Assembly (NCBI RefSeq): GCF_964213995.1
Contig: NW_027590138.1
Span: forward strand, 806,001 to 870,000
Source of the DNA: Mustelus asterias
Taxonomy: Eukaryota
DNA: 64,000 bases
Reading direction: 5' to 3'
Of the stretch, positions 6,453 through 64,000 are shown in pieces. The notes beneath the pieces are model-generated. The model worked only from the letters and a program-made list of their open reading frames with translations, did no database searches and was not told where the DNA came from. Position 1 is the first letter of the stretch, and every line of letters begins with the position of its first letter. A program made the translations under genes and the position numbers.

Positions 6453-8000
6453 TAGAACATAGAACAGTACAGCACAGAACAGGCCCTTCGACCCACGATG
6501 TTGTGCCGAGCTTTATCTGAAACCAAGATCAAGCTATCCCACTCCCTATCATCCTGGTGTGCTCCATGTGCCTATCCAATAACCGCTTAAATGTTCCTAA
6601 AGTGTCTGACTCCACTATCACTGCAGGCAGTCCATTCCACACCCCAACCACTCTCTGCGTGAAGAACCTACCTCTGATATCCGTCCTGTATCTCCCACCA
6701 CGAACCCTATAGTTATGCCCCCTTGTAATAGCTCCATCCACCCGAGGAAATAGTCTTTGAACGTTCACTCTATCTATCCCCTTCATCATTTTATACACCT
6801 CTATTAAGTCTCCCCTCCGCCTCCTCCGCTCCAGAGAGAACAGCCCTAGCTCCCTCAACCTTTCCTCATATGACCTACCCTCCAAACCAGGCAGCATCCT
6901 GGTAAATCTCCTCTGCACTCTTTCCAGCGCTTCCACATCCTTCTTATAGTGAGGTGACCAGAACTGCACACAATATTCCAAATGTGGTCTCACCAAGGTC
7001 CTGTGCAGTTGCAGCATAACCCCACGGCTCTTAAACTCCAACCCCCTGTTAATAAAAGCTAACACACTATAGGCCTTCTTCACAGCTCTATCCACTTGAG
7101 TGGCAACCTTTAGAGATCTGTGGATATGGACCCCAAGATCTCTCTGTTCCTCCACAGTCTTCAGAACCCTACCTTTGACCCTGTAATCCACATTTAAATT
7201 TGTCCTACCAAAATGAATCACCTCACATTTAACAGGGTTAAACTCCATTTGCCATTTTTCAGCCCAGCTTTGCATCCTATCTATGTCTCTTTGCAGCCTA
7301 CAACAGCTGTCCACCTCATCCACTACTCCACCAATCTTGGTGTCATCAGCAAATTTACTGATCCACCCTTCAGCCCCCTCCTCTAAGTCATTAATAAAAA
7401 TCACAAAGAGCAGAGGACCAAGCACTGATCCCTGCGGCACACCGCTAGCAACCTGCCTCCAATCCGAAAATTTTCCATCCACCACCACCCTCTGTCTTCG
7501 GTCAGACAGCCAGTTACCTATCCAATCGGCCAACTTTCCCTCTATCCCACACCTCCTTACTTTCATCATAAGCCGACCATGGGGGACCTTATCAAACGCC
7601 TTACTAAAATCCATGTATATGACATCAACTGCCCTACCTTCATCAACACACTTAGTTACCTCCTCAAAAAATTCTATCAAATTTGTGAGGCACGACTTGC
7701 CCTTCACGAATCCGTGCTGACTATCTCGGATTAATCCGCATCTTTCTAAATGGTCGTAAATCCCATCCCTAAGGACCCTTTCCATCAATTTACCAACCAC
7801 CGAAGTAAGACTAACCGGTCTATAATTACCAGGGTCATTTCTATTCCCTTTCTTAAACAGAGGAACAACATTCGCCATTCTCCAGTCCTCTGGCACCATC
7901 CCCGTGGACAGCGAGGACCCAAAGATCAACGCCAAAGGCTCTGCAATCTCATCCCTTGCCTCCCACAGAATCCTAGGATACATTTCATCAGGCCCAGGGG
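6453..8000 (-). mobile_element. Young 5'-truncated CR1/HER1-like LINE with an uninterrupted 484-aa reverse transcriptase ORF (6529-7983)
   Basis: NYRPVSLTS, DFSKAFDKVPH, GVPQGSVLGP and KFADD motifs; (TTCTATG)-type tail at about 6453-6470. Confidence 0.95.
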
Positions 8001-9336
8001 ACTGGTGATTAATACTACAAGGCTATCCGCTCCCCTGTTGTTATATGGTACAGATTAGATATATTATTTATAGCTCTGTAATAAAATACACTTATTATAT
8101 CTGGCTGTGTAATTTTGGACTGCAGCTATATTATATATTTCCAACAATCTCTTCTCTCAGAGAATTGTTAGTGTCTAGATTTCTCTTCCATAGGGACCAG
8201 TGGAGGGATTGAATATATTCAAGGATGAGTTAGACAGTGTTTGAATGACAAGGGAGTCAATAATTATTGGGAACAGGCTGGAAAATGGAGAGAAAGCTCA
8301 GATGAGGAAGGATTTCTTCACTCAAGGATGTGGTGATGTTTTGGATTCTCTACCCCAGAGGACTACAGAGCCTCAGTCATCAAGAATTTTCAAGAGAGGG
8401 GTTGATAGGTTTCTAGATATTGAAGATATCGATGGATATGGGGGACAGTGTGGGGAAAATAATGCAGAGGTAGATCAACCAATAATCTCAATGAATGGTT
8501 GAGCAGACTCGATGGGCCGAATGCTGACTGCAGCTCCTATTTGTTCTGATTTCTGTGCTGGACAGGAAGCAGTGAGCATGGATCTGTCAATCAGCCTCAA
8601 TCAGCACCTTCAGGAGAATTGGGAGGGTGAATATTAGATACAGCAGAGTGAGAATGGAGGGAGAGTGTGTGGGATGGAGATTCACGGCTTTTGGGGAATG
8701 GGAGAGGAAAGAATGTTCATTAGAATCACAGAATTGCTCCATCTTATCAACCGTCCCTGAGCTTTCACAATGAATCCCACTTCTGAGGACACCCTTATCT
8801 CTGACTTGTCTGTACTGCTGGCAGTCTCACAAAGCAGCTGCCTGTGTGCTGATACGGGAGGCCCTGCTGGGCAAGTTTAATGCTCCATGACTGTGTCTTT
8901 AAAGAATGCTCCATAAACTAGAAATGTAGATTTGAATTTCGATCATATTCTGAATTGCAATGTTTTTTTTCTAAATTGACTTACAGGATATTAGACAAGG
9001 AGAAATCAGACAGAAATCTCCAACATCACATCGAGATCTGACAGAGTGACTCGACTTCTTGGGACCTGAATATCATCGGCCTTTGAATCTAGCAGGAGAA
9101 ATGCTTGTTTGGCCTCTTGGCTTCAAAAGATTGTAAACATCGCTGTGACTAGAAATGCATTGAGATACACACACCCGAGTGAGAGTGTTCCAGTGCACTG
9201 AGTGTGGAAAGAGCTTTAACCAGTTACACAGCCTGAAAATACATCGCAGCTTTCACAGCGGGGAGAGATTGTACCCGTGACCTGTGTGAGATTTAACTGA
9301 TTGTTTAACCTGGAGAGTCACAAGGACACCCGCACC

Positions 9337-10263
9337 ATGGAGAAACCGTGGAAATGTGGAGACTGTGGGAAGGGATTCATATCCCCATCTCGGCTGGAAA
9401 TTCATCAACGCAGTCACACTGGGGAGAGACCATTCACCTGCTCTGTGTGTGGGAAGGGATTCACTCAGTTATCCAGCCTGCAGAAACACAATCTCACTCA
9501 CACCAATGAGAGACCATTTAAATGCTGTGACTGTGGGAGTGGTTTTAAAAGCTCTCAGGATCTGGTGTCCCACCAGCGCATTCACACTGAGGAGAGACCG
9601 TTCAGCTGCTCTCACTGCACAAAGAAATTTAGAACTTCATCCAACCTGCAGATACACCAGCGAGTTCACACTGGGGAGAGATCGTTCACCTGCTCTGTGT
9701 GTGGGAAGGGATTCACTCAGTCATCCAGCCTGAAGACACACCGAGTCATTCATACCAATGAGAGACCCTTTAAATGCTGTGACTGTGGGAATGGCTTCAA
9801 AAGCTCTCAGAAACTGATCGTCCACCAGCGCATTCACACTGAGGAGAGGCCGTTCAGCTGCCCTCACTGCTCAAAGAGATTTAGAATATCTGCAGCATTG
9901 CTGAACCATCAGCGAGTTCACACCAGGGAGAGACCATTCACCTGCTCGGTGTGTGCGAAAGGATTCACTCAGTTATCCAGCCTCCGCAGACACAACATCA
10001 CTCACACCCAGGAGAGACCCTTTAAATGTTCTGACTGTGGGAGTGGCTTCAAAAGCTCTCATGAACTGATTACCCACCAGCGCATTCACACTGGGGAGAG
10101 ACCGTTCAGCTGCTCTGACTGTGGGAAGGGATTCGCTCAGTCATGCAACCTACGGGTACATCAGCGAGTTCACACTGGGCAGAGGCTGGTCACCTGCTCT
10201 GTGTGTGGGAAGGGATTCACTCGGTCAGCAAACTTGGTGAAACACCAGCGAGTTCACAAGTGA
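9337..10263 (+). CDS. Tandem C2H2 zinc-finger protein, 11 fingers
   Basis: ACCATGG at 9337 (MEKPWKC), 11 intact fingers, acceptor TTACAG|GATAT near 8986. Mirror copy at 60659-61585. Confidence 0.9.
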   Translation: MEKPWKCGDCGKGFISPSRLEIHQRSHTGERPFTCSVCGKGFTQLSSLQKHNLTHTNERPFKCCDCGSGFKSSQDLVSHQRIHTEERPFSCSHCTKKFRTSSNLQIHQRVHTGERSFTCSVCGKGFTQSSSLKTHRVIHTNERPFKCCDCGNGFKSSQKLIVHQRIHTEERPFSCPHCSKRFRISAALLNHQRVHTRERPFTCSVCAKGFTQLSSLRRHNITHTQERPFKCSDCGSGFKSSHELITHQRIHTGERPFSCSDCGKGFAQSCNLRVHQRVHTGQRLVTCSVCGKGFTRSANLVKHQRVHK

Positions 10264-10344
10264 TTACAGTTCTGGGATTATTCTTGTGAATCTTTCTTGC
10301 CCCTTCTCCAGTGCCTTTATTTCCTTTTTCTAAATGGAGATCAC

Positions 10345-11560
10345 TAATAGAACGTAGAACAGTACAGCACAGGAACAGACCCTTCAGCCCACGATATTGG
10401 GTCGAACATGATGCCAAATTAAACTTATCCGTTCTGCCTGCCCTTGGTCCATATTCCTTGCATATTTATGTGTTTATCTAAACGCCCCTATCGTATCTGC
10501 CTCCACCACCTGTGCTGCAGCGTGTTCCAGACACGACCACTCTCTGTGCAAAGGAAAAACTTGCCCCTCACATCTCCTTTGAACTTTCCCCCTCTCTCCT
10601 GAAGTGCATGCCCCCTAGTATTAGAAATTTTAACTCTGGGGAAAAAGATTCTGACTGTCAACCCTATCTCTGTCTCTCATAATTTTATAGACTTCAATCA
10701 GCTCTCCCCTCAATTTCTGCAGTTTCAGAGAAAACAACCCTAGTTTGTCCAGCCTCTCATTATAGCTCATCCCCTCCAATCCAGGCAGCATCCTGGTAAA
10801 CATCTTCTGCACCCTCTCCAAATCCTCTGCATCCTTCCTGTAATGTAGCGAACAGAATTGAATGCACTATTCTAAGTGCGGTCTAACCAAGGTTTTATAA
10901 AGCTGCAACATGACATCCTGAATAAAGGATGTCAGACTCAATAAAGGCAAGCATGCTATCTGCCTTCTTTACCACCTATCTACTGGTGTGGCCAATTTCA
11001 GGGAGCTCTGGACTTGAACCCCAAGATCATTGCTGTTCAGGGGTCTGCCATTAACTGGATACTTACCCTTAATATTTGATCTCCCAAAGTGCAGCACCTC
11101 ACACTTGCCTGGATTAAAATCCATCTGCCATTTCTCCGCTCATATCTGCAGCTGATCTACATCCCACTGTATCCTTTGACAACCTTCTACATTATCTACA
11201 ACTCCATCTAGCTTTGTGTTGTCTGCAAACTTACTAACCCACCCATCCACGTTTTCATCCAAGTCATTTATATGTATCCCAAAGAGCAAAGGTCCCAGTA
11301 CGGATCCCTGCAGAACACCACTCGTCACAGACCTCCAGTCAGAAAAACACCCTTCCACCACTATTTTCTGACTTCTATGGGCAAATCAATTCTGAATCCA
11401 AGTGGCCAAGTCACCGTGAATCCCATGCATCTTAATCTTCTGGATGAGGCGACCATGAGGGACCTTGTTGAAAGCCTCACTAAAATCTATGTACACAACA
11501 TCCACTGCTCTACCCTCAATGGTCACCCTTGTCAGCTCCTCAATAGAATCAATCAAGTTA
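10345..11560 (-). mobile_element. Degenerate CR1 LINE 3' portion
   Basis: RT fragments DFSEAFNKVPH, GVLQGSVLGP, ERVQKMFTRMLPG; CR1 tail near 10345-10400. Confidence 0.9.
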
Positions 11561-11664
11561 GAAAGATGTTGACATTGCTGCCAGTGTAGTCTGGTGATGA
11601 AAATATAGACTGGTTCAGTGAAATGTCGGTAACGGGTAGAATTGATATCTAATGAGGACTTTAG

Positions 11665-12770
11665 CAAGGGAGGTGTTGCATAAGGTTAAATCTCATGGGA
11701 TCCAGGGTGAAGTAGCTAAATGGATACAAAATTGGCTGGATGATAGAAGACAGGGGGTGGTTATAGAGGGTTGTTTTTCAAACTGGAGGCCTGTGACCAG
11801 TGGTGCACCACAGGGATCAATGCTGAGTCTACTCTTATTTGTCATTTATAATAATGATTTGGATGAAAATTTAGGAGGCATGGTTAGTAAGTTTGCAGAT
11901 GACACCAAGATTGGTGGCACAGTGGACAGTGAAGAAGGTTATCTCAGATTGCAACGGGATCTTGATCAATTGGGCTAGTGGGCTGATGAATGGCAAATGC
12001 AGTTTAATTTAGATAAATGCGAGGTGATGCATTTTGGTAGACTGAATCAGGGCAGGACTTACTCAGTTAATGGTAGGGCGTTGGGGAGAGTTACAGAACA
12101 AAGAGATCTAGGGGTACATGTTCACAGCTCCTTGAAAGTGGAGTCACAGGTGGACAGCGTGGTGAAGAAGGCATTCAGCATGCTTGGTTTCATTGGTCAG
12201 AACATTGAATACAGGAGTTGGGACGTCTTGTTGAAGTTGTACAAGACATTGGTAAGGCCACACTTGAAATACTGTGTACAGTTCTGGTCACCCGATTATA
12301 GAAAGGATATTATTAAACTAGAAAGAGTGCAGAAAAGATTTACTAGCATGCTACCAGGCCTTGATGGTTTAAGGTATAAGGAGAGGCTGGATAGACTGGG
12401 TGTTTTTTCCCTGGAGCGTAAGAGACTTGGGGGTGATCTTATAAAGGTCTAAGTAAAGTAACGTTTATTTATTAGTCACAAGTGGGCTTACATTAACACT
12501 GCAATTAAGTTATTGTGAAAATCCCCTAATCGCTGCACCGTGGCACCTGTTCGGGTACACTGAATGAGAATTTAGCATGACCAATGCATCAAACCTGCAC
12601 ATCTTTGGATTGTGGGAGGAAACTGGAGAACCCGGAGGAAACCTACGCAGACACGGGGAGAATGTGCAAACTCCACACAGACAGAGGGCATAGGTTTAAG
12701 GTGAGAGGGGAGAGATACAAAAGGGTCCAGAGGGGCAATTTTTTCACAGAGGGTGGTGGGTGTCTAGAAT
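11665..12770 (+). mobile_element. CR1 LINE fragment with a nested V-SINE (about 12452-12683, minus strand, tail B)
   Basis: KFADDTKIGG and RPHLKYCVQFWSP motifs; CR1 resumes at RGHRFKVRGE after the SINE. Confidence 0.9.
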
Positions 12771-24569: not shown

Positions 24570-25583
24570 CAGTTAATTGAGTATTTATTCTGGGGATGAA
24601 GGGGATGACAAATGAGGAGAGATTAAGCAGTTTGGACTATACTCGCTGGAGTTTAGAAGGATGAGCGAGATCTAATCGAAGGACATAAAATGTTAAAAGC
24701 GATTGATAAAGTAAATGTAGAGCAAATGTTTCCTCTTATGGGACAATCTAGAACAAGAGGTCACAGGTATAGGTTGCGAGGCTATAGATTTAAAACTGAG
24801 ATGAGGAGCTTCTCAGAGGATGGTGAATTTGTGGAACTCGCTGCCACATAGCGAGGTGGTGTCTGAATCATTGAATTGTTTCAAGAGGAAGATAGACATA
24901 TTTCTGATAAAAAGAAAGGGAAAGATGGATATGGGGAACAGGTGGGGAAGTGGATTTGAGACCAGGGAGAGATCAGCCATGACCTGATTGAAAGGCGGAG
25001 CAGGCTCGAAGGGCTGAACTTGCCTCCTTCTGCTCCTAATTTTGGTCCCCTTACTTGCGAAAGGATTGGCCTTGGAGGGAGTGCAGAGAAGGTTCACCAG
25101 GTTGATACCGGAGTTGAGGGGTGTAAATTATGAGGAGAGATTGAGCAGATTGGGTTTGTACTCGTTGGAGTTTAGAAGGTTGAGGGGTGATCGTACAGAG
25201 GCATATAAAATAATGAAGGGGCTGGATAGGGTAGAAGTGGAGAGATTCTTTCCACTTAGAAAGGAAGCTGGAACTAGAGGGCACAGCCTCAAAATAAAGG
25301 GGGGTCAGTTTAGGACAGAGTTGAGGAGGAACTTCTTCTCTCAGAGGTGGTGAATCTCTGGAATTCTCTGCCCACTGAAGTGGTGGAGGCTATCTCGTTG
25401 AATATGTTTAAATCACGGAGAGATGGATTCCTGATCGGTAAGGGAATTAGGGGTTATAGGGACCAGGCGGGTAAGTGGAACTGATCCACTTCAGATCAGC
25501 CATGATCGTATTGAATGGCGGGGCAGGCTCGAGGGGCTAGATGCCTCCTCCTGCTCCTATTTCTTATGTTCTTATGTTCTTAT
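24570..25583 (+). mobile_element. Two tandem CR1 3' fragments
   Basis: LEGVQRRFTRLIP..LYSLEFRRLRGD; (TTCTTATG)n tail at 25560-25583; first fragment's tail near 25000-25040. Confidence 0.85.
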
Positions 25584-26175
25584 AAGCTGCAGGAAAGGAT
25601 GTCCCGAGGCATGGTACATTGGGGAGACAATGCAGATGTTACGACAACGGATGAATGAACACCGCTCGACAATCACCAGGCAGGAGTGTTCTCTTCCTGT
25701 CGGGAAACACTTCAGCAGTCATGGGCACTCAGCCTCTGATCTTCGGGTAAGCGTTCTCCAAGGCAGCCTTCACAATACACGATAACGCAGAGTCGCTGAG
25801 CAGAAACTGATAGCCAAGTTCCGCACACGAGGACGGCCTAAACCGGGATCTTGGGTTCATGTCACACTATCTGTAACCCCCACGACTTGCCTGGACTTGC
25901 AAAATCTCAGTAACTGTCCTGGCTGGAGACAATACACATCTCTTTAACCTGTGCTTAACCCTCTCTCCACTCACATTGTCTATACCTGTAAAGACTTGAT
26001 TACCTGTAAAGACTCGCATTCCAACCATCATCTTGTAAATTGAGTCTGTCTCGATGTATGCCTTGTTTGTGAACAGAACTCTTCACTCACCTGAAGAAGA
26101 AGGAACACTCCGAAATCTTGTGCTACCAAATAAACCTGTTGGACTTTAACCTGGTGTTGTCAGACTTCTTACTGG
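25584..26175 (+). mobile_element. Penelope-like element 3' end (GIY-YIG endonuclease C-terminus plus terminal repeat)
   Basis: Manual translation from 25588: CRKGCPEAWYIGETMQMLRQRMNEHRSTI..PVGKHF..GLNRDLGF. CTGAAGA..CGAAA motif near 26090-26115. Confidence 0.85.
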
Positions 26176-26689
26176 GTTCAATCGCACAGTCACTGGTTCC
26201 TCTCTCTGTCCCTGATGCTGATTATTCACTCTTTTACAGAATGATACAGCACAAATAGAAACCATTTGGCTCATTATGTCTGTACTGGCTCTCTGGAAGA
26301 TCTATCCAATTAATTCCACAGCCAGAACAATGTATATCTGCTGTAGTATTCTGAGGCCTGAATGGAAAAAGTTTTCCAGTCGGATAGTTCTCAGACACAA
26401 TCAGCCCTGTGGAAAGATTGATTGCCTAATTCATTGAGAAGATATAAAGTGCCCATTGAGCAGATAAAGTGCCTGGCAGAGTTTAATTGTATATTTCTGC
26501 AGACCCCAAATACTGCAGTGACATTATCCTAAAGGGCCAATGGTTGAATTATGGAATTACAAAGAAAAAGCATTCACGTCCTGAATCTTCATAATTATTA
26601 CTTGGCTGGGATGTTTCAGTATGAAAGAATCCTACGTCTCAGTCAGGCAAAAGCGGTCATGTCCAATGGACCTGTTAAAGACAAATAAC

Positions 26690-27800
26690 TATTACATTGC
26701 ACTGGGGTTTATGCGATCAGGTGTTGGTTTTATGAACAAGGTTTGTATCAGAGTGGAGCTGTGTGTTTGATTCTCCACAACAATTGTAGTATCCTTACTA
26801 AATATCCACCACAATCGCAACAGTTAGCCCAGAACTCTGAGGTTATTGCGGTCACAGCCCTTCAAACTGTTACCGATATAATCACCAAATATTCTGAAAG
26901 CTACGTTGGTTGTAATTCCCTCAGAAAACCTACCCCTCTGGGGGAGGAAACACAGCTTCTCCACAGCAGAAAGGAAACCACTGCTCACCACTCCAAACTC
27001 TGAATGATTGGGAATGTTACTGGATGTCCAGGACAAATTGCTATTTGCCAGGTGAAGGTAGATCAGCAGCAGGAGTTAGTGAAGAGAGTGATGGTAATAA
27101 CCAGGCAGACTGACTCACCAGGAAAGCTGCTCGAGAGGAGATTCCATGGGATCCACCCAAAACACAATCATTGGGACCGGTACGACAGACTCCAGTTATA
27201 TGTCATTTAAAAACTTGTCAGGACACTGACCTAAGATGACTGTGGGTAAAAAGGGTTGGCACCATAGAGAAAACTTTCCCTCATCATTCACAGCAAGTAA
27301 GGACTCTCATCTGACACAATGAAGTTTTCTTTCACAAATATGGTTTAACTTTGACTTCAGTCACAACTCGATGGCTTAGAAAGGAATTAGTATATTTGAT
27401 GGATCAAAGCAAGGCGTATTTCTTGTTTTTTGACTCCTCAATATTATACAACATGATCATACTATCAGTGGCTGAGGATGTATCAGAATGTCCATCAGCA
27501 CCTGAAGCTGTGCCTCATGTGTTCAAACTAATCAGATTCTGCAAAATGCATTGTCCCAATTAACATGTTCCACATTATTGATGTTCCCTGGGAAACACTG
27601 CAGCTTGATTATACAGGCCCACTCTCCACACTAAGAGGAGACTGGTATATCCTGCTAATTACAGCTATGTTTACCTGGTGGATTGAAACCTTTCCTGTTT
27701 GTAAAAATGATGCAGACACAATAGCTAAAATCCTGGATGAGGCTTCCTGAAATGGATAGAGAATGACAATAGTTCTCATTTCACAGCAGAAATAGTGTAA
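26690..27800 (+). mobile_element. Degraded LTR retroelement / endogenous retrovirus pol (RNase H plus integrase)
   Basis: PWETLQLDYTGPL..YILLITAMFTWWIETFP..ADTIAKIL matches an integrase core. Upstream AQNSEVIAVTAL, YSESYVGCNSL and IAICQVK are RNase H-like. Confidence 0.7.
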
Positions 27801-29259
27801 TAGCTCTCCAAAAGAAAAAATCCAGAAGAATAATTTTGAAAAAAGTTGATTAATTTCATATTTATCCAGTTGAGTTCGGATGGTTATTACTGTCAGAAAC
27901 AAAACCTGACTCTCAGAATGAACATTGTTCAGTCCAACTGGGTGGCATGGTGGCACTGTGGCTCGCACTGCTGCCTCACAGCATCAGGGACTGGGTGTGA
28001 TTCCCGGCTTGGGTCACTGTCTTGTGGAGTCAGCACGTTCTCCCCGTGTCTGCGTAGGTTTCCTCCGGGCGCTCTGGTTTCCTCCCACATTCCAAAAGAT
28101 GTGCTGGTTCGGTGCATTGCCCATGCTAAATTCTCCCAAATTCAGTGTACCTGAACAGGCAAATTTAGCAACCATACCTTCAATTCCTTCATCTGAGTCA
28201 TTTATATAAATGGTAAAAAGGTTGAGGTCCCAGCATTGACCCGTGGCCCACCACTCATCACATCCAGTCAACTAGAAAAAGACCCATTTATGCCAATCCT
28301 GTTTCCTGTTAACTACCCAATCTCCTTTCCGTGCCAATATGTTACCATTCCCCCCGCCCCACTAGGAGCTTTTATTTTCCACAATATCCTTTGATGTGAT
28401 AGCTTATAAATGCATTCTGGAAATCTCAGTACATTCACCTTTCTGCACCTTTGGTTCCCGTTTATCCACAGCACATGTGACTCATTCAAAGAACTGAGAA
28501 AATAGGTTGAATATGATTTCCCTTTCTCAAAACCATGTTGACTCTTCTTCATGGCCTGATTTTATCTCACTGCCATGCTGTAACGTATTTAATAATAGCT
28601 TCTAACATTTTTCCTCTGGCATGTTAAGTTAACTGTCCTGTAGTTTCCTGCTTTTTGTCTCTCTCCTTCTTTGAATAAAGGAGCTGCATTTGCTACTTTC
28701 TAATCTAATGGAACTTCCACCAAAACCGGGGAATTTTGGAAAATTAAAACAATGCATCAACTATCTCACCAGTCATTTCTACCCCTCTTCAGCTAAAGAA
28801 CAGCCATGTGGCCTCGAAATGTCAACTCTGTTTCTCCCTCCACAGGTACTGCCAGACCTGCTGAGTCTTTCCAGCATTTTCTGTTTTTATTTCAGATTTT
28901 CAGTATCTGCAATACTTTGCTTTTACCTGACGAGCTGCTTCTTTTCAGAGCCGAGAATGAAGTCCATCAGGGTCCGGGATTTGTCAGCCGACAGCTCCAA
29001 CTATTTGCTCAGTACCACTTCATAAGTGACAGTAGTTTTCCTGAGTTCCTCTCTCCCTTCCACACCCTGATGAGATATTACTTCTATCCTCGATACTATC
29101 GGGTAGAGTACTAAACTATAGTGAAGACTGATACAAAGTACCTGTTGAATTCATCTGCCATCTCCTCACTTTCCATTATTAATTCCCCAGAGTCACTTTC
29201 TCTTGGACCAACATTCACTTGGATAACTCTTTTTATTTAAATATCCAGAGAAATGTTTA

Positions 29260-30505: not shown

Positions 30506-30779
30506 CGAAAAATATTCACATCGTGAATATTTTTAATAACTCTAATACACGTCAGTTCCTTTTGAAGGGCTCTCCCCTGTTTCCTCTATCCTCACCTCCA
30601 ACAACAAGTGTGAGGAGCTCATGGAAGTACTTTGTCACTAAGATTGAGATAATCCAATCAGCTGTCTCTGTTGCTTTGCTCCATTCCATTAGCCCAATGG
30701 GCCAAACTGTCTCTAAACATCCCTCTTGTCTGAGCCCCGAACTCCCACTTTTCTCCATCCAGTCTCCACACACACCAGT

Positions 30780-33385: not shown

Positions 33386-33519
33386 TGAAATTACCTGTGG
33401 AGAAGATTATGTTTTATCTTCTTGAACAGCTGCAGTCCATGTGGTGAAGGTGCTCCCCTTTAGGTCAAGAGTTACAGGCTATTCACCCAGTGATGATGAA
33501 GGGACAGTGATACATCTCC

Positions 33520-40430: not shown

Positions 40431-40716
40431 TGGGGTGGCACAGTGGTTAACACTGTTGCCTCACAGCGCCAGGGACCCGGGTTCAATTCCCAGCTTGGGT
40501 CACTGTCTGTGTTGAGTTTGCATGTTCTCTGCATGTCTGCGTGGGTTTCCTCCGGGTGCTCCGGTTTCCTCCCACAGTCTGAAAGACATGCTGGTCCGGT
40601 GCATTGACTCGAACAAATGCCGGAGTGTGGCAACCTGGGGAATTTCACAGTAACTTCACTGCACTGTTAATGTAAGCCTACTTGTGACTAATAAATAAAC
40701 TTTACTTTTTGCTTTA
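40431..40716 (+). mobile_element. V-SINE, tail type B
   Basis: Head, V core and TGTGACTAATAAATAAACTTTAC tail. Confidence 0.85.
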
Positions 40717-42587
40717 CTGAACCAAATGGTTTTTTTCTGACAATTGACAATGGTTTCATGGTCAGCAGTAGATTCTTAATTCTGATTTTTTTAATTGAAT
40801 TCAATTATTTTTATTGAATTAAATGTACGAGGCAAGTTTTTTTTTTACAAAGAGTGGCAGGTGCCTGGAACTCGCTGCTGGGGGAGGTAGTGGAAGCAGA
40901 TATGATAGTGACCTTTAAGGGACACCTGGACAAATGCATGAATAAAATGGGAATAGAGGGATATGGTCCCCGGAGGCCTTTTTAGTTCAGACGGGCAGCA
41001 TAATCAGTGCAGGCTTGGAGGGCCAAAGAGCCTGTTCCTGTGCTATAATTTTCTTTTTTCTTGTTCTTTGTTCAAATTACACCACTTGCTGTGGTGGGAT
41101 TTGAACCCGGTCCCCAGAACATTAGCTGAGTTTATGGATTAAGTCTAGGGATAATACCATTGGGCCATCACCTCCCATCTGGAACAAAACTGTTTTCACC
41201 ACTAAGGCTCTGCTGTGATGTAATAGTCTCTATGACATCATCGCAGCAGGACTGGATGACATAATCAGAGTCCATTGTTTCTGAATGATCCACATCAATA
41301 ACAACAGGAAATACTCATCAAGCTGAGCACATTATCTAGGCTGACACTGCAGTCTGACATTGAGGGACTGCTGCACTCTGACACACACTGTCCTTCACAT
41401 GGAGCTTGTGGCGCTCTGGCCACAACCTTCCAATCCTTATAGAGTCGTAGTGACAAAGGACAGAGAATGTAAATGTTACATCCCTGTTCAAAAACACAGC
41501 AATTACAGAACAATCAGCTTAACATCAGCGGTGGGGAAAAGCCAATAATTTGAGACACAATCAACTGACACTTGGAAAAGTATGGATTATAATTTCCAGT
41601 ATTTTCTATTTTTAATACTGAAAACTTCCCTAGATCTCAAGGCTGGGAGAGACACTCGGAAAGGTATAGGGAGCTGGGACTTGTCCATGATAAGAAACAA
41701 TACTTTTCACTTTATGCGAATACATGTGACAATAATAAATCAAATTTTAAAAAATCAGTGTAACTCAAGGTCTGAGACTGAAATAATCAAGAGTTAGAAA
41801 GGAGAAAAGAACCAAAAAACAGAACAGTCAGTAACAGGACATCAATTAATCTCTTATCCTGGAGAAAATCAAGGATTTAACACACCGTATGTTTGAAACA
41901 AAGCTGATTTATTTAACAGATGTCAGAATATTAAATTCCACGTCAGTTAGAGATTATCTGAAGAAATAAATGTTAATTGTCTGATTGAAGATGGTCGAGA
42001 GGAGATTGATAGAGGTACTCAAAATCCTGAGGAGTTGGGCAGGTGAAATAGTGAGGAAATGTTCCCACCAAGAGAACATCAAGAACTAGAGGGCACAGAC
42101 CTACGTTAATGGGGAAAACAGAGTCAAAGTGATGTGAGGAAAATTATTTTCACCGAGTGGGTGGTTGGAGTCTGGAATAAACGTCCTGTGAGAGCAGTGG
42201 AGGCAGGTTTGATCAAGGTACTCAAAAGAATTGGATTGTTATCTGAAAAGAAAGAGTGTGCAAGGTTACAGGGGTATGGCAGGGGAATGGGATTAAGCTC
42301 TTTCAGTGAGCCAGTGCAGACTTGATGGGCTGAATGGCCTCTTTCTGTACTGTAAAGAATATGTGATGAGAGTTCCTGAATGATGGGGAAAGATCACAGA
42401 CAGTGGTTCTTAAAGGGAAACTGCAACCCCAAAAACACACACAGCTCTAGATCGAGAATATTAACCTGCAGCCCACTTACAGGGATTATTAACATAAGCA
42501 GAAACAAACCTCAAATGTCAGAATGAATGTGGCTCACTCCTGGATGTGATTAACAGCAGCAAGTACAGCAGAATCCACTCCCTGCAC

Positions 42588-43121
42588 TCACTCGTGAAGT
42601 CGCTGGTGTGTCACCAGGTGGGAGGAGGTAGTGAATCCCTTCCCACACTCTGAGCAGGTGAATGGTCTCTCCCCAGTGTGAAGTCGCTGATGTGCTTTGA
42701 GGCTGGATGAATGTCTGAAGCTCTTTCCACAGTCAGTGCAGCTGAATGGCCTCTCCTCAGTGTGAACTCTCTGGTGTGTCACAAGGTTGGATGAATTAAT
42801 GAATCGCTTTCCACACACGGAGCAGGTGAACGGCCTCTCCCCGGTATGAATTCTCCGGTGTAATTGTAGGTTATACATCTGGACGAATCCCTTCCCACAC
42901 ACAGAGCAAGTGTATGGTCTCTCTCCAGTGTGAACTCGCTGGTGTAATGTTAGGCAGGATGATTGAGTAAATTCCTTCCAACACACGGGGCAGGTGAAGG
43001 GTCTCTCCCCAGTGTGGGTGCGTCGATGAGTTTCCAGTTTGGATGGGCAAGTGAATGCTTTCCCACAGTCCCCACATATCCACGGTTTCTCTATGGTGTC
43101 AATATCATCATGTCTCTCCAT
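42588..43121 (-). CDS. C2H2 ZNF, 6 fingers
   Basis: Six intact fingers. The family Met codon is ATA here (IEKPW) and an ATG lies 9 codons upstream. Acceptor TTTTGCAG near 43431. Confidence 0.85.
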
Positions 43122-43575
43122 ATTGGGTGATTAGTTGAAGCCTCGTCCACACAAAGAACACATGCACAGATTCACATTGCTGTGAATGGTGTTATGTTTT
43201 TTCAGGCTGTGTAACTGGTTAAAGCTCTTTCCACAGTCAGTTCACTGGAAAAGTCTCACTCGGGTGTGTCTCTCGGTGCTTTTCCAGTCACACTGAAGTT
43301 TGAAATCTTTTCCCGCACTCCACATTCAAAGGCTGATAGTGTTCAGGTGCTGGTGAATTGAGCAACTGTTAAATCTTGGTGTGAAACTTGAGTCCATTTT
43401 GCTGACTGTAAATTTCCCCCTTCAAACATCCTGCAAAAGGAGTTTACAAAACTACTGTCAGTCCAGGATAGAATTCTGATCAGACAAGTCTAATTTCTAA
43501 GGAACAACTTTTCTGCTCTGGTTTCCCAAAACAGTAAATCTATGTCCCACACACTCTCCCTCCTCCCTGAGCTGA

Positions 43576-43912
43576 GGGCGGCACGGTGGGACAGTGGTTA
43601 GCACTGCTGCCTCACAGCACTAGGAACCCAAGTTTGATTCCCAGCTTGGTTCACTGTCTGTGTGAAGTTTGCATGTTCTCCCTGTGTCTGCATGAGTTTC
43701 CTCCAGGTGCTCCAGTTTCCTCCCACTGTCCAAACAGGTGCGGATTAAGTAGATTGGAAATGCTAAATTAACCCTGAGTGTTTGTGTGGGTGGGGTGGGG
43801 GGTCTAGCTCGGGTAAATGCATGGGGTAACGGTGATAGGGCCTGGGTGGGATTGTGGTCAATGCAGATTCGATGGGCCCAACGGCCTCCTTCTGCACTGT
43901 GGGATTCTATGA
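43576..43912 (+). mobile_element. V-SINE (CR1-type tail)
   Basis: GGGCGGCACGGTGG head; GGCCTCCTTCTGCACTGTGGGATTCTATG tail. Confidence 0.88.
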
Positions 43913-44499
43913 GATCTAAATGAAATGTTGCATATTTTTCATGCATCCTTACAACTAATTTATACAAATCACTCCAAGGCCTGTTCCTCCCCATCTCTGG
44001 AATCACCTCTAGTACTGCTTTGATTCTGGCTTCCTTCACATTCCATTTTTTAATCACTCCACCATTAGTGACTAGACCTTCACTGCACAAGGATTCCTAC
44101 CATGCAGAAGGAAACCATTTGGCCCATCAAGTCTGGACCAACTCTGAATATTTTACCCCAGATCTATACCTCTAACCCACCTTACCTGCACATCTTTGTA
44201 CACGAAGGGGCAATATAGCATGGCCAATTCCCCTGAGCATCACATCTTTGGACGGTGGGAGAAAACCAGAGCATCCAGAGGAAACCCACAGTCAGAGGGA
44301 TAACGTGCAAACTCTGCACAGACAGTGACCCAAGGCTGGAATTGAACCCGAGTCCCTGGAGCTGTGAGGCAGCAGTGCTAACCACCCTGATATTAATGGT
44401 GTTATATAAATAGAAGTTGTTGTTGGCTGTAACCCTAATTTCCGGTTTTACAACAACACATTGATTTTATAACAAACTGTCTGATTTTTTTTGTCTCCA

Positions 44500-45200
44500 G
44501 TGGGTTATTCATTTGGTTTCACCCTCCAGATGTATGGTGGCTGCGCATGCGTTATTCCAATTTACCTCAACAAAGATGGCGGATGCGCATGCGCTTTGCA
44601 ATACGTGGTTCCCTATAAAGATGGCGGATGTGAACTCGGGTCTGAACCTTCGGAAGGCCCGAGGAATTTGCTTCGCAAATTGAGGGTTTGTGGCCGACAC
44701 CGGGTTTTTATAAAGCCTCACCACCCACCCGCCAACTCCATTTCTGTTTCCGGTTTTATTTCGGGCTCTGGATCCGCATTGGATCTTTGTAAAAATCTCC
44801 ATTTAAAACCCGCTCGCTCGAGCGCCTTACCGTCTGCCGCAGGCACTGCGCATGCTCCAGCTCCCAAACCAGGATGGGGCCGTTAACCTGAGCCTGTTCC
44901 CAGGAGGGAGGGAGAAGCCCCGCAGCTGCAAACCAGGGAGCTGACAATGATTCTGAAGGGTTTGCGGATCCACAAAGTGTTTCCAAATCCTCCCAGCCAC
45001 CGCCTAACGCTGACTCCGCTTCTCCGGGACAAACAAGCACCAAGGACAGCAATGACACTGCGCATGCTCCACATCACAATACCCGGGGAATGACTGACGG
45101 CAGCTCCGGACCAATCGGAAGAGGGGGCGGGACTGGAGGACCGAGCGGGAGCGGCTGGTCCTCCAACCAATCAGAGTGAATGAGGGGCGGGACTGGAGGA
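44500..45200 (-). promoter_or_regulatory. Putative promoter and first exon of ZNF 42588-43121
   Basis: Duplicated CCAAT plus GGGGCGGG unit (45110-45200), TGCGCATGC(G) x4, AAGATGGCGG (YY1) x2, minus-strand donor CAG|GTTAAC near 44887. Confidence 0.65.
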
Positions 45201-45204
45201 CCTA

Positions 45205-45480
45205 ATCTGTTGATTAGTAGGGTCAGTGTGTCTGGGACAGGGCCTGGGGAAAGGTGCTCTGTTGGTTAGTGGGATCAGTATGTCGGGAGAGGGATAGGGC
45301 CTGGGTAAAGGTGCTCTGTTGGTCAGTATGTCAGGGATAGGGCCTGGGGAAAGGTGCTCTGTTTATTAGTGGGGTCAGTATGTCAGGATACAGGGATAGG
45401 GCCAGGGTCAAGGTGCTCTGTTGATTAGTGGGGTCAGTGTGTCAGGGTACAGGGATTGGACCCGGGTAAAGGTGCATTAT
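45205..45480 (+). repeat. Minisatellite, about 5 degenerate units of about 40-62 bp
   Basis: Unit approximately CTGTTGATTAGTGGGGTCAGTATGTCAGGATACAGGGATAGGGCCTGGGTAAAGGTGCT. Confidence 0.85.
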
Positions 45481-46549
45481 GCTTTATGGCAGTCTGCAGT
45501 TTGGCCAAGGTCTACATTTTAGTCCAAAAAGTACATGTTTAAATTCTCTACCAGTGATTATTTGTACCTCTATGCAGACAGTATCTTTGTATAATATAAA
45601 TAAGGCACGTTGTGGTCCTTATTCTACGTTCGTCTAAGTCAGTCCACCCTGTTTCAATAGCCTTTATTAGTTTTTAATCTCAAGGTATTCTGAACCCCTC
45701 TAACAAAATAACTTTAAAAAACTTAAAGTTTATAATTAGTCTCAAGTAGGCTTACATTAACACTGCAATGAGGTTACTGTGAAAAATCCCCTCTCTAACA
45801 ACAAAAGAAACTTGATTTTAAACTTCACCTATTAATTTTTTTGTTATATTCCTCAACCTATTTTAATTTGATCAGTTTTTTGTGAGGGATGGGAATTTCT
45901 GTTCTTTATAAACTGGTTCACTCGTTTTGTTAAATCTACATGGGCTCGGGAATCAGAACCCAGACTCTATCATCCATATCCTTTTTCTCCTTTTGTCACC
46001 ACTTTCTCTGTTTTGTGGGAGGGTCGTGGGGATTCCAATCAGACCTAATCATTTATTATAAAAGTAAAACAAAAACAGAAAATGCTGGAAAATCCCAGCA
46101 GATCTGACAGCATCTGTAGGGAGAGAATAGCGCCAACGTTTCAAGTCTGGATGACCCTTCATGAGAGCTCCTATGAAGTGTCATCCAGGCTCAAAATGTT
46201 GGCCCTATTCTCAAATCATTTTATCGATAAGTTTCTTGTTCTTAGTTTCCAAAAGACAGGTAAGAAATCTGTCTGGTGCCCACTCGAGCTCTGAATTTTT
46301 CACTGGCCATGCTTGGGTTGGATTATAACCATTAGAATCCACTCTTAGACGTCCACTTTTCAGTCCAGTGCTACTTGGAGTGTACCGTCACTTCACCGAC
46401 TACCGGGTCACAAGACCTTCACAGTTCTTATCACAAATCTATGATAAAATAATTTAAGCAATGCCTGAGAACACTTCTTAATCAACGACCTACCACCGTT
46501 TGTTGATTGTGAGATTTGGATATCTCAGCCGCTGAATACCAGCTGGTTA

Positions 46550-46871
46550 TTCATAGATTCATAGAATCCTATAGTGCAGAAGGAGGCCATTTGGCCTATC
46601 GAGTCTCCACTGACCACAATCACACCCAGGCCCTGTCCCCCATGCATTTACCCTAGCTCGCCCCCCTGACACTAAGGAGCAATTTAGCATGGCCAATCCA
46701 CCTAAACCGCATATCTTTGGACTTTGGGAGGCAACCGGAGCACCCGGAGGAAACACGGACACGGGGAGAATGTGCAGACTCCACACAGCCAGTGACCCAA
46801 GCCAGGAATCGAACCCAGGTCCCTGGCGCTGTGAGGCAGCAGTGCTAACCACTGTGCCACCATGCCGCCCA
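46550..46871 (-). mobile_element. V-SINE (CR1-type tail)
   Basis: Reverse complement of head, V core and ATTCTATGA tail. Confidence 0.88.
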
Positions 46872-47686
46872 AACTTATGGAATAAGTTTAATTCTAACTC
46901 ATTCTGTGTAAATATTCTCACAAGGTCCTCTTTTGGAGCTTTGCTAAGCAGCTTTAATGGTTTGTGATTGCAGAAACTGAGCCGTCACAGAAACATGGTC
47001 AAGATAGTCCAGTCCCATAATGCCTCACATTCAATCTGCAGTCCTTTAATTATAGCAGGATATGTGGCTGTATGTAGCTGCCTCGGCCATGGTCAACCCC
47101 AACACTGCCTTCTTGAACTGCTACAATGCCCGAGATGTAAGTACGCCCACAGTGCTGTTAGGGAGGGATTTCCAGGTACACCTTCCTGACAAGATTCTGA
47201 CAGGTTTAGACAAGGTGGACAAAGAAAAACTGTTCCCATTAGCTGATGGGACAAGGACGAGGGGGGGCACAGATTTAAGGTTTTGGGTCAGAGATGCAGG
47301 GGGGGGATGTGAGGAAGAATATTTTGATGCAGCGAATGGTAATGACCTGGAACTCGCTGCCTACGAGGGTGGAGGAAGTGGAGACAATAAACAATTACAA
47401 AAGAAATTGGATGGGCATTTGGGGGGTTCCAAACAGAAATCCTTACTAATTATCTCTAAACTTCCTAACATCCTGTCACTCTGTGATCCGTGTGAAATTT
47501 GAAATCAGGTATTTGCAACAAGACTCAAAGAGCATCAGCTCACTGGAGGCAAAGTTGTGAGACCGGCCACTCCAGCAGAAAGAAACCCTCCGACCCTCCC
47601 CATTGACCAACTGTGAGAATGAACAAAATGCAGTCCTGGATGTAATTGAGAGCAGAAACAATAACAGCAGAATCCAACCCCTGGAA

Positions 47687-48361
47687 TCACTCGTGAACTT
47701 GTTGGTGTCTCAAAAGGTGGGATGAAAGACTGAATTTCTTCTCACACACAGAGCAGGTGAATGGCCTCTCCCCAGTGTGAACTCGCTGGTGTTTCTGCAG
47801 GTGGGATGACTGAGTGAATCCTTTCCCACACTGAGAGCAGATGAACGGCTTCTCCCCAGTGTGAACTCGCTGGTGTATCTGCAGGTGGGATGTCCGAGTA
47901 AATCCCTCCCCACATTGACAGCAGGTGAATGGCCTCTCCCCTGTGTGAACTTGGTAGTGTGTCTGCATGTGGGATGACTGAGTGAATCCCTTCCCACACT
48001 GAGGGCAGGTGAATGGCCTCTCCCCAGTATGAATGTGCTCATGTGCCCGCAGGTTGGATGAACAAGCGAATCCTTTCCCACACTGAGAGCAGATGAATGG
48101 CCTCTCCCCAGTGTGAGCTTGCTGGTGCCTCCGCAGGCTGGATAAATGACTGAATCCCTCCCCACACTGAGAACACGTGAACGGCCTCTCCCCAGTGTGA
48201 ACTCGTTGGTGTGTCCGCAGGTTGAATGACTGAGTGAATCCCTTCCCACACTGAGAGCACGTGAATGGTCTCTCCCCAGTGTGGCTGCGCTGATGAGCTT
48301 CCAGCTCATTTGGGTATCTGTATCTCTTCCCACAGTCTGCACATTTCCATGGTTTCTCCAT
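47687..48361 (-). CDS. C2H2 ZNF, 8 fingers
   Basis: ACCATGG at 48361 (MEKPWKC), eight intact fingers, acceptor TTTTACAG|GATAT near 48696. Confidence 0.9.
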
Positions 48362-50079
48362 GGTACAGGTGTCCTTGCCTCTGTCTTGGGTGGACAATCA
48401 GTTGAAGCCTCGTCCGCACACAGAACACGGGTACAGTCTCTCCCCGCTGTGAATGGTGTGATATTTATTCAGGCTGTGTAACTGGTTAAAGCTCTTTAGT
48501 CAGTGCGCTGGAAGATTCTCACTCGCGTGTGGCAGTGTGTTGGTGCTTTTCCAGTCACACTGATGTTTGAAATCTTTTCAAATCGACAGACCGGACAACA
48601 ATTTCTCCTTCTAGATTCAGCTCCCAAGGAATATGACTCTGTCAGATCCAGACGTGACGTTTGAGATTTCGGCCTGTGATTCCTCTTTCAATATCCTGTA
48701 AAATGAGTTTACAAAAGTCATCAGTGTCAGTACAGGATAGAAATTCAGAACAGGATTCTATTTAAAAATGAAATTGGATGGGCACTTGATGGAAATAAAC
48801 TTTCAGGAGAATGGGGATATCGAGTGGGAATGGGACTGGAATGTTATACAGAGAGTCAGCATAGACTCGAGTTACCGAATGGATTCCTTCTGTGCTGTAA
48901 TTACTTTATGACTGGAAATGTATAACATCGCTACAGCCTTATATTACAATGCAAGAAATAATAATAAATGTATTTTATTACAGAAGCATAAAGAATGTAT
49001 CTAATCTGGGTACCATATAATAACACTAGACATATCTCTGTCCTATATTAATTTACTGTACGCTTAAATGTCAGCCATCTCCTGGGGAAAGCTGCCCTTT
49101 AATTGTGAACATTAGGAAAAAGACCATCTTTTAGACAGACAAATAAATGTGTCAAGCTGAGGGAGCAAAGGATGTTTACCAGGCTGATTCAGGGAATCAC
49201 AGGACTGATGTAGGAGGAGAGACTGACTAGGTTAGGATTGTTTTCGTTGGAGTTCAGATGAATGATGGGGGAATCTCAAAGAGACTGATAAAATTCCAAC
49301 AGGTCGAGACAGGATAGATGCAGGGAGGATGTTCCTGATGGAGTCCAGAACTGGGGGTCACAGTCTGAGGATTCAGGGCAGACCATTTAGGACGGAGGTG
49401 AGGAGACATTTCTTCACCCAAAGAGTGGTGAGCCTGTCGAATTTATTACCACAGGAAGTAGTTGGTGCCAAAACATTGAATGTATTCAAGAGGCGGCTGG
49501 ATAAAGCACTCGGGGCGAATGGGATCACAGGTTATGGGGAAAAAGCAGGATTAGGCCATGATTGTAATGAATGGCGGAGCAGGCTCGAAGGGCCAAATGG
49601 CTTCCTCCTGCTCCTACCTTCTATGTTTCTATGTCAATGTCTTTAAGAGAGAGAGAGAGACCTGGGCCAACCTTTCCAGAGTCTGCAGCCTCCCTGGATT
49701 CACTTCGTTTCCCTTCAGTTGCTGCAAGTCCCCAATTTCCCCCAGAACGAGAAAAGAAATGGAAAGGGGAGAAAAGAAAGTGTTTTACTCACAGATATTG
49801 GCCTCTTTTAGGTCAAAACAAATGAACAAACTCAAGTTAAATCATGACAAAGTAAAAGGGGCAGCTCCCCAAAAGGAGGGGGAACAGCCCGAACAAAAAT
49901 CAAAGTACAAAGGAAAGAGCTAGATGTTGGCCTCTTTTAAGGAAATAAGTGATAAATTAGTTATCCGCCAGGGTTCGATGTCATCTGATCGCTTGTTTGG
50001 AGAATAAAACATACTTAGGTACCTCGCTTCCTCTGGGATATGAAGCTGTAATCCATATAATCTCAAATAACTCCCTTCC

Positions 50080-61585: not shown

Positions 61586-62921
61586 GGTGCGGGTGTCCTT
61601 GTGACTCTCCAGGTTAAACAATCAGTTAAATCTCACACAGGTCACGGGTACAATCTCTCCCCGCTGTGAATGCTGCGATGTATTTTCAGGCTGTGTAACT
61701 GGTTAAAGCTCTTTCCACACTCACTGCACTGGAACGCTCTCACTCGGGTGTGTGTATCTCAATGCATTTCTAGTCACAGCGATGTTTACAATCTTTTGAA
61801 GCCAAGAGGCCAAACAAGCATTTCTCCTGCTAGATTCAAAGGCCGATGATATTCAGGTCCCAAGAAGTCAAGTCACTCTGTCAGATCTCGATGTGATGTT
61901 GGAGATTTCTGTCTGATTTCTCCTTGTCTAATATCCTGTAAGTCAATTTAGAAAAAAAACATTGCAATTCAGAATACGATCGAAATTCAAATCTACATTT
62001 CTAGTTTATGGAGCATTCTTTAAAGACACAGTCATGGAGCATTAAACTTGCCCAGCAGGGCCTCCCGTATCAGCACACAGGCAGCTGCTTTGTGAGACTG
62101 CAGCAGTACAGACAAGTCAGAGATAAGGGTGTCCTCAGAAGTGGGATTCATTGTGAAAGCTCAGGGACGGTTGATAAGATGGAGCAATTCTATGATTCTA
62201 ATGAACATTCTTTCCTCTCCCATTCCCCAAAAGCCGTGAATCTCCATCCCACACACTCTCCCTCCATTCTCACTCTGCTGTATCTAATATTCACCCTCCC
62301 AATTCTCCTGAAGGTGCTGATTGAGGCTGATTGACAGATCCATGCTCACTGCTTCCTGTCCAGCACAGAAATCAGAACAAATAGGAACTGCAGTCAGCAT
62401 TCGGCCCATCGAGTCTGCTCAACCATTCATTGAGATTATTGGTTGATCTACCTCTGCATTATTTTCCCCACACTGTCCCCCATATCCATCGATATCTTCA
62501 ATATCTAGAAACCTATCAACCCCTCTCTTGAAAATTTTTGATGACTGAGGCTCTATAGTCCTCTGGGGTAGAGAATCCAAAACATCACCACATCCTTGAG
62601 TGAAGAAATCCTTCCTCATCTGAGCTTTCTCTCCATTTTCCAGCCTGTTCCCAATAATTATTGACTCCCTTGTCATTCAAACACTGTCTAACTCATCCTT
62701 GAATATATTCAATCCCTCCACTGGTCCCTATGGAAGAGAAATCTAGACACTAACAATTCTCTGAGAGAAGAGATTGTTGGAAATATATAATATAGCTGCA
62801 GTCCAAAATTACACAGCCAGATATAATAAGTGTATTTTATTACAGAGCTATAAATAATATATCTAATCTGTACCATATAACAACAGGGGAGCGGATAGCC
62901 TTGTGGTATTAATCACCAGTC

Positions 62922-64000
62922 CCCTGGGCCTGATGAAATGTATCCTAGGATTCTGTGGGAGGCAAGGGATGAGATTGCAGAGCCTTTGGCGTTGATCTTT
63001 GGGTCCTCGCTGTCCACGGGGATGGTGCCAGAGGACTGGAGAATGGCGAATGTTGTTCCTCTGTTTAAGAAAGGGAATAGAAATGACCCTGGTAATTATA
63101 GACCGGTTAGTCTTACTTCGGTGGTTGGTAAATTGATGGAAAGGGTCCTTAGGGATGGGATTTACGACCATTTAGAAAGATGCGGATTAATCCGGGATAG
63201 TCAGCACGGATTCGTGAAGGGCAAGTCGTGCCTCACAAATTTGATAGAATTTTTTGAGGAGGTAACTAAGTGTGTTGATGAAGGTAGGGCAGTTGATGTC
63301 ATATACATGGATTTTAGTAAGGCGTTTGATAAGGTCCCCCATGGTCGGCTTATGATGAAAGTGAGGAGGTGTGGGATAGAGGGAAAGTTGGCCGATTGGA
63401 TAGGTAACTGGCTGTCTGACCGAAGACAGAGGGTGGTGGTCGATGGAAAATTTTCGGATTGGAGGCAGGTTGCTAGCGGTGTGCCGCAGGGATCAGTGCT
63501 TGGTCCTCTGCTCTTTGTGATTTTTATTAATGACTTAGAGGAGGGGGCTGAAGGGTGGATCAGTAAATTTGCTGATGACACCAAGATTGGTGGAGTAGTG
63601 GATGAGGTGGAGGGCTGTTGTAGGCTGCAAAGAGACATAGATAGGATGCAAAGCTGGGCTGAAAAATGGCAAATGGAGTTTAACCCTGTTAAATGTGAGG
63701 TGATTCATTTTGGTAGGACTAATTTAAATGTGGATTACAGGGTCAAAGGTAGGGTTCTGAAGACTGTGGAGGAACAGAGAGATCTTGGGGTCCATATCCA
63801 CAGATCTCTAAAGGTTGCCACTCAAGTGGATAGAGCTGTGAAGAAGGCCTATAGTGTGTTAGCTTTTATTAACAGGGGGTTGGAGTTTAAGAGCCGTGGG
63901 GTTATGCTGCAACTGTACAGGACCTTGGTGAGACCACATTTGGAATATTGTGTGCAGTTCTGGTCACCTCACTATAAGAAGGATGTGGAAGCGCTGGAAA
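62922..64000 (+). mobile_element. Mirror copy of the young CR1 LINE (cut by the window end)
   Basis: Reverse complement of 6921-8000. Confidence 0.95.

Follow-up and report, generated by a model that had tools for sequence, protein, structure and literature searches.

A two-level inverted repeat in a shark zinc-finger gene cluster and its possible extension by homology-guided copying

Background

Inverted segmental duplications in clusters of zinc-finger (ZNF) genes rich in transposable elements (TEs), gene conversion between palindrome arms, and template switches between inverted repeats are all known from mammals. Here we analyze a stretch of 64,000 nucleotides from Mustelus asterias (NCBI RefSeq assembly GCF_964213995.1, contig NW_027590138.1, positions 806,001 to 870,000 of the forward strand), referred to as the window, in which a large inverted repeat carries ZNF genes in both arms. 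The identity profile of the arms consists of one sharp, gap-free step with nearly Poisson-distributed divergence on its outer side, rather than of many conversion patches.

A template switch between inverted repeats generates a chimeric repeat and copies the flanking sequence backwards (PMC11293582; here and below, each source is cited for the part of its text available to us). [quoted passage not shown] However, the repeats named there share about 99% identity (for Alu pairs, values as low as 85% are cited), whereas those of M. asterias would have been about 96% alike at the event. The described events are also new and pathogenic, whereas here the product is old, and the window shows neither junction 2 nor the triplication.

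The palindromes of mammalian X and Y chromosomes (PMC8327919, PMC3723533) offer another comparison: as in the window, they have inverted arms longer than 8 kb, genes within the arms, and a spacer of tens of kilobases; an identity above 99% is found in the window over the outer part (99.14%), the value over the whole arms being 97.9%. Their arms, however, are less than 0.2% apart, whereas those in the window are 0.7-0.9% apart and include a 4-kb inner layer at 95%, and no sign of sex linkage or ongoing conversion is seen here. Young mouse KRAB-ZNF clusters (PMC11952569) are similarly TE-rich and grow by duplication of multi-gene blocks together with the repeats inside them; recombination between two clusters is also reported to have produced an inversion, and the paper mentions neither gene conversion nor inverted arms. 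In contrast to those clusters, the repeats in our window are mostly long and short interspersed elements (LINEs and SINEs), and the Pfam hits listed for the seven scanned ZNF open reading frames (ORFs), which cover last exons only, include neither KRAB nor SCAN families. Finally, false heterotype duplications (10.1101/2020.05.22.110833) place two copies that differ at the level of heterozygosity in one primary assembly, as may be the case here, although here the second copy lies in inverted orientation, is joined without a gap and would have been reached by way of a real older repeat.

A literature search, for which most subscription papers and supplements were outside reach, found no description of palindromes in shark ZNF clusters. 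In particular, the main text of PMC10547256 contains none of the terms shark, chondrichth, cartilaginous and skate, and a preprint on the shark sex chromosome (10.1101/2025.03.13.642935) does not contain "palindrom".

Results

Self-comparison of the window by BLAST gave two minus-strand blocks, 6921-17705 against 64000-53227 (98.4% identity) and 19060-22150 against 53130-50080 (91.9% identity). A global alignment unites them as one collinear pair of arms, in which 6921 to about 22150 mirrors 64000 to about 50080. Up to 22150, this alignment contains 288 substitutions in 13887 aligned columns and left-only segments of 25, 341 and 921 bp. The arms enclose a spacer of 27.9 kb (22151..50079) that holds ZNF ORFs and fragments of LINEs and SINEs. 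An earlier model-generated reading of the letters alone (the sequence-only reading) had proposed arms of at least 14 kb around a spacer of about 28 kb with the right arm running past the window edge, and both comparisons bear this out. Note that 6921 is set simply by the window edge, whose mirror position it is, and lies inside what we take to be a CR1-type element; the true outer ends lie past the range that can be mirrored here. Each arm carries a LINE, a ZNF gene of type C, a tRNA-Lys(TTT) gene, a ZNF gene of type D and a putative promoter module, and both ZNF genes are intact with 11 fingers. The tRNA-Lys genes and the left-only segments of 341 and 921 bp add to what that reading had described.

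The optimal segmentation of the arm alignment has three segments: 6921-17107 at 0.86% (88/10180), 17108-21750 at 4.67% (155/3320) and 21751-22150 at 11.6% (45/387). The Bayesian information criterion (BIC) for one to five segments is 2812, 2597, 2590, 2601 and 2607, respectively; thus a uniform identity, which the sequence-only reading had held would speak against conversion, is rejected (2812 for one segment against 2590 for three). The same reading had placed a drop in identity near 17050, and the maximum-likelihood change point agrees with it closely, being 17120 with a 2-lnL interval of 17025-17121. This switch point (mirror about 53885-53790) is crossed by no alignment gap. It divides the left arm (+ strand) into an outer part (6921..17100), which is 0.86% from its mirror (0.66% over 6921-13541) and whose outer end is past the mirrorable range, and an inner part (17121..22150), which is 4.67% from its mirror to 21750 and 11.6% over 21751-22150. 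The right arm (- strand) correspondingly consists of an outer part (53805..64000), which leaves the window inside its CR1 copy, and an inner part (50080..53790). When compared with the usual palindrome criteria, the outer arm extends over 10.2 kb within the window (criterion, more than 8 kb), and the identity is 99.14% over the outer 10180 columns and 97.9% over all 13887 (criterion, more than 99%).

Taken raw, the substitutions in 6921-16900 of the outer arm show overdispersion (p 0.005-0.011), which is lost once changes at most 10 bp apart are merged (76 events; p 0.68, 0.28 and 0.74), leaving a single nominal peak in a 1-kb scan, at 14481 (p 0.026, in one of three window sizes). The region 6921-13600 alone is Poisson-like, with a variance/mean ratio of 0.5-0.85 over these distal 6.7 kb and a longest identical run of 508 bp (p 0.80). 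As a test for conversion tracts, the longest identical run overall, 584 bp (p 0.38), indicates no excess of long runs, and a two-state hidden Markov model (HMM) with the inner-arm rate found no stretch of the outer arm that diverges at the inner level (gain -0.34, p 0.35, 184 permutations). The run-length and HMM tests have low power against many short old tracts, and the indels point the opposite way: they are clustered, with four of the eight in the outer arm lying within 290 bp (p 0.005). The lower identity with indels that had been noted by eye at about 14600-15500 therefore stands in part; it holds for the indels, and is weak for the substitutions, for which a patch (14582-15706, 2.23%) appears only in models of worse BIC.

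Several further explanations of this pattern were considered. Conversion in many patches is unsupported for substitutions by segmentation, permutation and HMM alike. As to GC-biased conversion, unpolarized counts of strong and weak letters, 35 on the left and 29 on the right in the outer arm, are uninformative. Sequencing error is an unlikely source of the arm differences, as there are 87-88 outer substitutions against eight indels and the four ZNF frames are all open. The tRNA gene, considered as a possible cause of the step, lies about 600 bp outside it. An element resembling a long terminal repeat (LTR) is also visible by eye in both arms at 13100-14050; it contains a cluster of eight substitutions at 13743-13913.

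In the inner arms, ZNF D (20227..21240, - strand) is an open frame of 337 codons with 11 fingers, and its mirror ZNF D' (50990..51991, + strand) differs by 22 residue changes and a four-residue indel, close to the earlier count of about 21 plus an indel. Zinc fingers contact bases through positions -1, 2, 3 and 6 in the standard numbering. At these positions none of the 44 inferred contact residues has changed (p 0.04), so that all 11 four-residue sets are identical. The proportions of synonymous and non-synonymous differences (pS and pN) are 0.065 and 0.029 over 315 codons, a ratio of 0.44 (p 0.02). Because of this ratio and the unchanged contact residues, D and D' are a true old duplicate pair under purifying selection.

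The inner arms also differ by insertion and deletion. A SINE of 341 bp (17698..18038) is present on the left only, and so is a segment of 921 bp (18332..19252), in place of which the right arm has one chimeric SINE instead of the two on the left. When the right-arm SINE (52840-53140) is compared with 18130-19350, its 5' two-thirds track the first left SINE and the remainder tracks the second. Since it is thus a chimera of the two left SINEs, the 921 bp were lost on the right by SINE-SINE recombination.

The inner limit of arm-specific similarity lies in module P2 (21720..22150), a CpG-rich segment between ZNF D (-) and ZNF E (+), and in its mirror P2' (50080..50510), between ZNF I (-) and ZNF D' (+). 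Homology continues inward at lower levels (22157-22319 against 49796-49631 at 90%; 22316-22688 against 49175-48780 at 76%), and this alignment at the spacer edge is at the level of cluster-wide paralogy. A third paralogous module, P1 (4968..6043, CpG-rich near 5100-5500), located upstream of ZNF C, served as the outgroup. In the three-way alignment, sites specific to P2 and P2' dominate only to about 22200; inward of 22300, the values for P2' against P1 are 0.96, 0.85, 0.82 and 0.84, and those for P2' against P2 are 0.88, 0.88, 0.74 and 0.75. The inward-facing genes ZNF E and ZNF I are 76% alike, as is any pair in the cluster. A third and older layer formed by E and I was rejected, since ZNF I shows 75% identity with A, with C and with D' too, since the branching of A, E, I and H is not resolved in the tree, and since P2' is no closer to P2 than to P1 from about 22300 inward. 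Note also a run of about 22 C at 22686-22707, compared with three or four in P1 and P2', which may be an expansion or a consensus error.

In the outer arms, ZNF C (9301..10263, + strand) is an open frame of 320 codons with 11 C2H2 fingers. ZNF C' (60659..61621, - strand) differs from it at 6 of 320 residues, the number given previously, and two of these are at inferred base-contact positions. The six non-synonymous changes and one synonymous change give no significant signal of selection in either direction. The two tRNA-Lys(TTT) genes, 16381..16455 (-) on the left and 54459..54533 (+) on the right, differ at a single site, tRNA position 8, which is G on the left (61.9 bits) and U on the right (66.6 bits); in the predicted folds, the left copy has a misfolded T arm and the right one forms a cloverleaf. 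We take the body of this tRNA to resemble the vertebrate Lys-CTT type, and the anticodon may have shifted.

The LINE of the left arm (6454..8005, - strand), presumably of CR1 type, is 5'-truncated and retains 491 stop-free codons with an RVT_1 domain. The right arm carries the same LINE from about 62916, at the same site and with the same truncation. Since the probability that such a frame stays open at the per-lineage rates of the inner arms is 0.028, the LINE was probably inserted after D and D' had separated, and later came to be present in both arms. Between the LINE copies (6921-7983 and 62938-63999) there are four synonymous and three non-synonymous changes (ratio 0.2, p 0.04); this low ratio is odd for a dead insertion and may reflect chance or exchange with other LINE copies.

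Jukes-Cantor distances are 0.0067 for the distal outer arm and 0.048 for the inner arm, a ratio of about 7. With three shark rates from PMC9826928, they correspond to 3-21 million years for the outer and 22-151 million years for the inner arms, ranges that hold only if the outer arms are paralogues.

The window as a whole has a composition of 45% GC, as vertebrate DNA, and contains only the letters A, C, G and T, with no N gap. It has nine long C2H2 reading frames together with many reverse-transcriptase fragments and SINEs. All seven ZNF ORFs scanned with Pfam exceeded the cut-offs of PF00096 and PF13465, the eighth scanned protein being the LINE reverse transcriptase, and the locus is thus a C2H2 zinc-finger cluster with several poly-C2H2 genes. 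A region search with ZNF C returned 63 proteins, the best being a sawshark protein at 64% identity and the fourth a smoothhound protein at 59%, and a whole-protein search with ZNF D returned 118 generic ZNFs at 34-62%. These searches thus gave no orthologue of the arm genes above 64% identity, and exact look-ups succeeded in 0 of 8 cases. In a search of sequencing runs with 12950-20150, part of the query was shared in 18 of 24 rows. The largest shares, 0.47-0.54, came from three samples of one organism in one study, and the others were 0.20-0.33, three of these being from runs labeled shark metagenome; the shares, which may reflect repeats only, are not used as evidence.

The ZNF genes are laid out head to head around the CpG-rich modules, where the ratio of observed to expected CpG is 0.73 (P1) and 0.61 (P2) against 0.35 for the window; this layout and CpG content suggest that the modules are bidirectional promoters. 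An element of 100-150 bp stands in inverted orientation on both sides of every module (inverted pairs among 4968-5070, 5547-5651, 21521-21650, 22183-22319, 49631-49803 and 50605-50709). It is 90-97% identical between modules, while other module flanks are 75-85% alike. It may be a conserved regulatory or splicing element or a product of local conversion.

The spacer has ZNF ORFs at 23357-23983 (+; ZNF E), 37662-38825 (+), 42588-43130 (-) and 47687-48397 (-). In two fingers of ZNF E a zinc-binding cysteine is missing, and near 23030 the likely splice acceptor of this gene has AA in place of the AG of the paralogues; the gene is possibly decaying. Decayed ZNF copies with broken frames are found at 1743-2456 (-) and 30883-31588 (+). 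By eye, further CpG-rich, promoter-like stretches occur at 32400-32830 and 44500-45200, the latter followed by a 59-bp tandem repeat at 45332-45475, and a decayed retroelement-like stretch occupies 26400-27900.

Discussion

The old inverted duplication of D and D' is directly visible in the alignment, as is a step that is gap-free and in register. We favor the explanation, with a probability of about 0.45, that the outer flank was later copied once, guided by homology and primed by this old repeat, in the manner of junction 1 in DUP-TRP/INV-DUP, so that the step would mark a single real germ-line event. In an old first stage, a unit of promoter module and ZNF D was duplicated in inverse to give D and D', with the inner bound inside the promoter module, where the arm-specific likeness fades into cluster paralogy. 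Because this repeat ends inside an already repeated module, it may itself have begun by homology. Both copies then remained functional while drifting about 5% apart, with a SINE gained on the left and the SINE-SINE deletion on the right. A second stage, younger by a factor of about seven, would have been one recombination at 17025-17121 for which the old repeat supplied the homology. As a result, the sequence flanking one arm on its outer side (at least 10 kb, with tRNA-Lys, ZNF C and the young LINE) would have come to flank the other arm too. The route could be a template switch in break-induced replication, from D' to D with the flank copied backwards, or a single conversion tract of great length, and the divergence of about 0.7% between the outer arms would have built up afterwards.

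This proposal agrees with the Poisson-like distal 6.7 kb, as expected after a single copy, and with the lack of diverged islands. Moreover, the young LINE probably crossed together with the outer block, whereas the inner heterologies of 341 and 921 bp were never evened out. As for the prerequisites of a template switch, the pre-existing inverted pair is present (the D/D' inner arms, 4.67% apart), and so is a junction 1 inside the homology and without a scar (17025-17121), although the rival explanations predict the latter likewise. Compared with the sequence-only reading, two ages within one inverted repeat are upheld, and patchy re-homogenization by conversion is replaced by a single step without islands; its alternative of nested duplications of different ages is the one preferred here, in a homology-guided form.

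A number of observations weigh against this proposal. Seven of the eight outer indels fall in the 1.9 kb adjoining the step (p about 1e-4), and events are denser near it (35 in 3510 bp against 41 in 6620 bp, p 0.026). Such crowding is not predicted by one clean copy and needs later short conversions or locally faster mutation. The junction 2 and third copy required by DUP-TRP/INV-DUP are not seen in the window and would lie beyond 64000. The LINE-age test is modest, its frameshift rate being taken from seven hand-counted indels, and the outer duplication is itself putative.

To produce a switch that is gap-free and in register, either homologous exchange or a haplotype switch in the assembly is necessary. 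Three histories, namely a template switch, repeated conversion and an assembled inversion heterozygote, all yield such a step, and one sequence cannot separate them. Under repeated conversion, the main proposal of the sequence-only reading, the locus would be one old palindrome with arms of at least 15 kb, the outer part of which was kept alike while the inner 4-5 kb escaped after the one-sided indels (25, 341 and 921 bp) blocked pairing. We consider this rather unlikely, but the geometry suits it. The outer arm agrees with the working definition of more than 8 kb and more than 99%, and palindromes are least stable at their spacers and inner arms (PMC8327919); PMC3723533 reports conversion tracts longer than 9 kb; inward of the step, at a distance of 0.5-1.2 kb, come the three largest heterologies; and denser indels and events by the step are expected where tracts end. 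However, the step coincides with no heterology, there is no surplus of long identical runs and no residual island of high divergence, and the probably young LINE of 1.55 kb would need to have been co-converted. The divergence of 0.66-0.86% is also well over the less than 0.2% of primate X palindromes (PMC8327919). The likeness to sex-chromosome palindromes proposed in the sequence-only reading is one of geometry only; nothing in the sequence indicates a sex chromosome.

The haplotype switch would instead require an individual heterozygous for an inversion of the spacer, with a crossover at about 17.1 kb, whose two haplotypes were assembled end to end. D and D' would still be a true inverted pair, with one and the same flank next to D in the first haplotype and next to D' in the second. 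The assembler would have passed through D' into the flank of the other haplotype, backwards; the outer arms would then be allelic, with C' and the second tRNA as false copies. Such an artifact accords with the sequence pattern throughout: it predicts the gap-free step, the uniformly low outer divergence, the common young LINE and the arm that leaves the window, and raised allelic divergence beside an inversion breakpoint would fit as well. The value of 0.66% is inside the 0.1-1.1% heterozygosity of the Vertebrate Genomes Project (VGP) set, in which false duplications are among the commonest errors (10.1101/2020.05.22.110833), and the lack of a purifying signal in C/C' (not significant) points the same way. 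On the other hand, the sole shark figure found, a heterozygosity of 0.27% in the basking shark (PMC13044535), is 2.5-3 times below the outer divergence, and the VGP false duplications are tandem or on separate contigs and usually gapped (10.1101/2020.05.22.110833), whereas this window is gap-free, although a gap is not required. Both an inversion heterozygote and a graph error are needed, and we regard this origin, too, as rather unlikely. Two independent duplications whose non-homologous breakpoints abut by chance would account for the two clear divergence levels, but there is no junction scar and the collinear gap-free alignment needs homology-guided exchange, which makes this explanation very improbable.

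Conclusions

If the outer arms prove to be an artifact, the locus would flag a polymorphic inversion of the spacer, a false copy of a ZNF and a tRNA gene, and an error mode for which shark assemblies should be screened. In both cases the mechanisms have already been described in mammals, and a specialist would find the case interesting rather than surprising. If the structure is real, a broader interpretation of cluster growth, which we consider improbable, is that opposed paralogous promoter modules seed inverted repeats, each of which primes an outward, layer-by-layer extension of the palindrome that, in the course of tens of millions of years, adds ZNF and tRNA genes, here on a non-mammalian and probably autosomal chromosome. 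Under such growth, D/D', with frozen contacts, and C/C', with two of six changes at contacts, would be two time points of ZNF divergence. A real structure would provide a dated, two-step record of the growth of a ZNF cluster in a vertebrate lineage that evolves slowly and has ZNF clusters little described in the literature searched.

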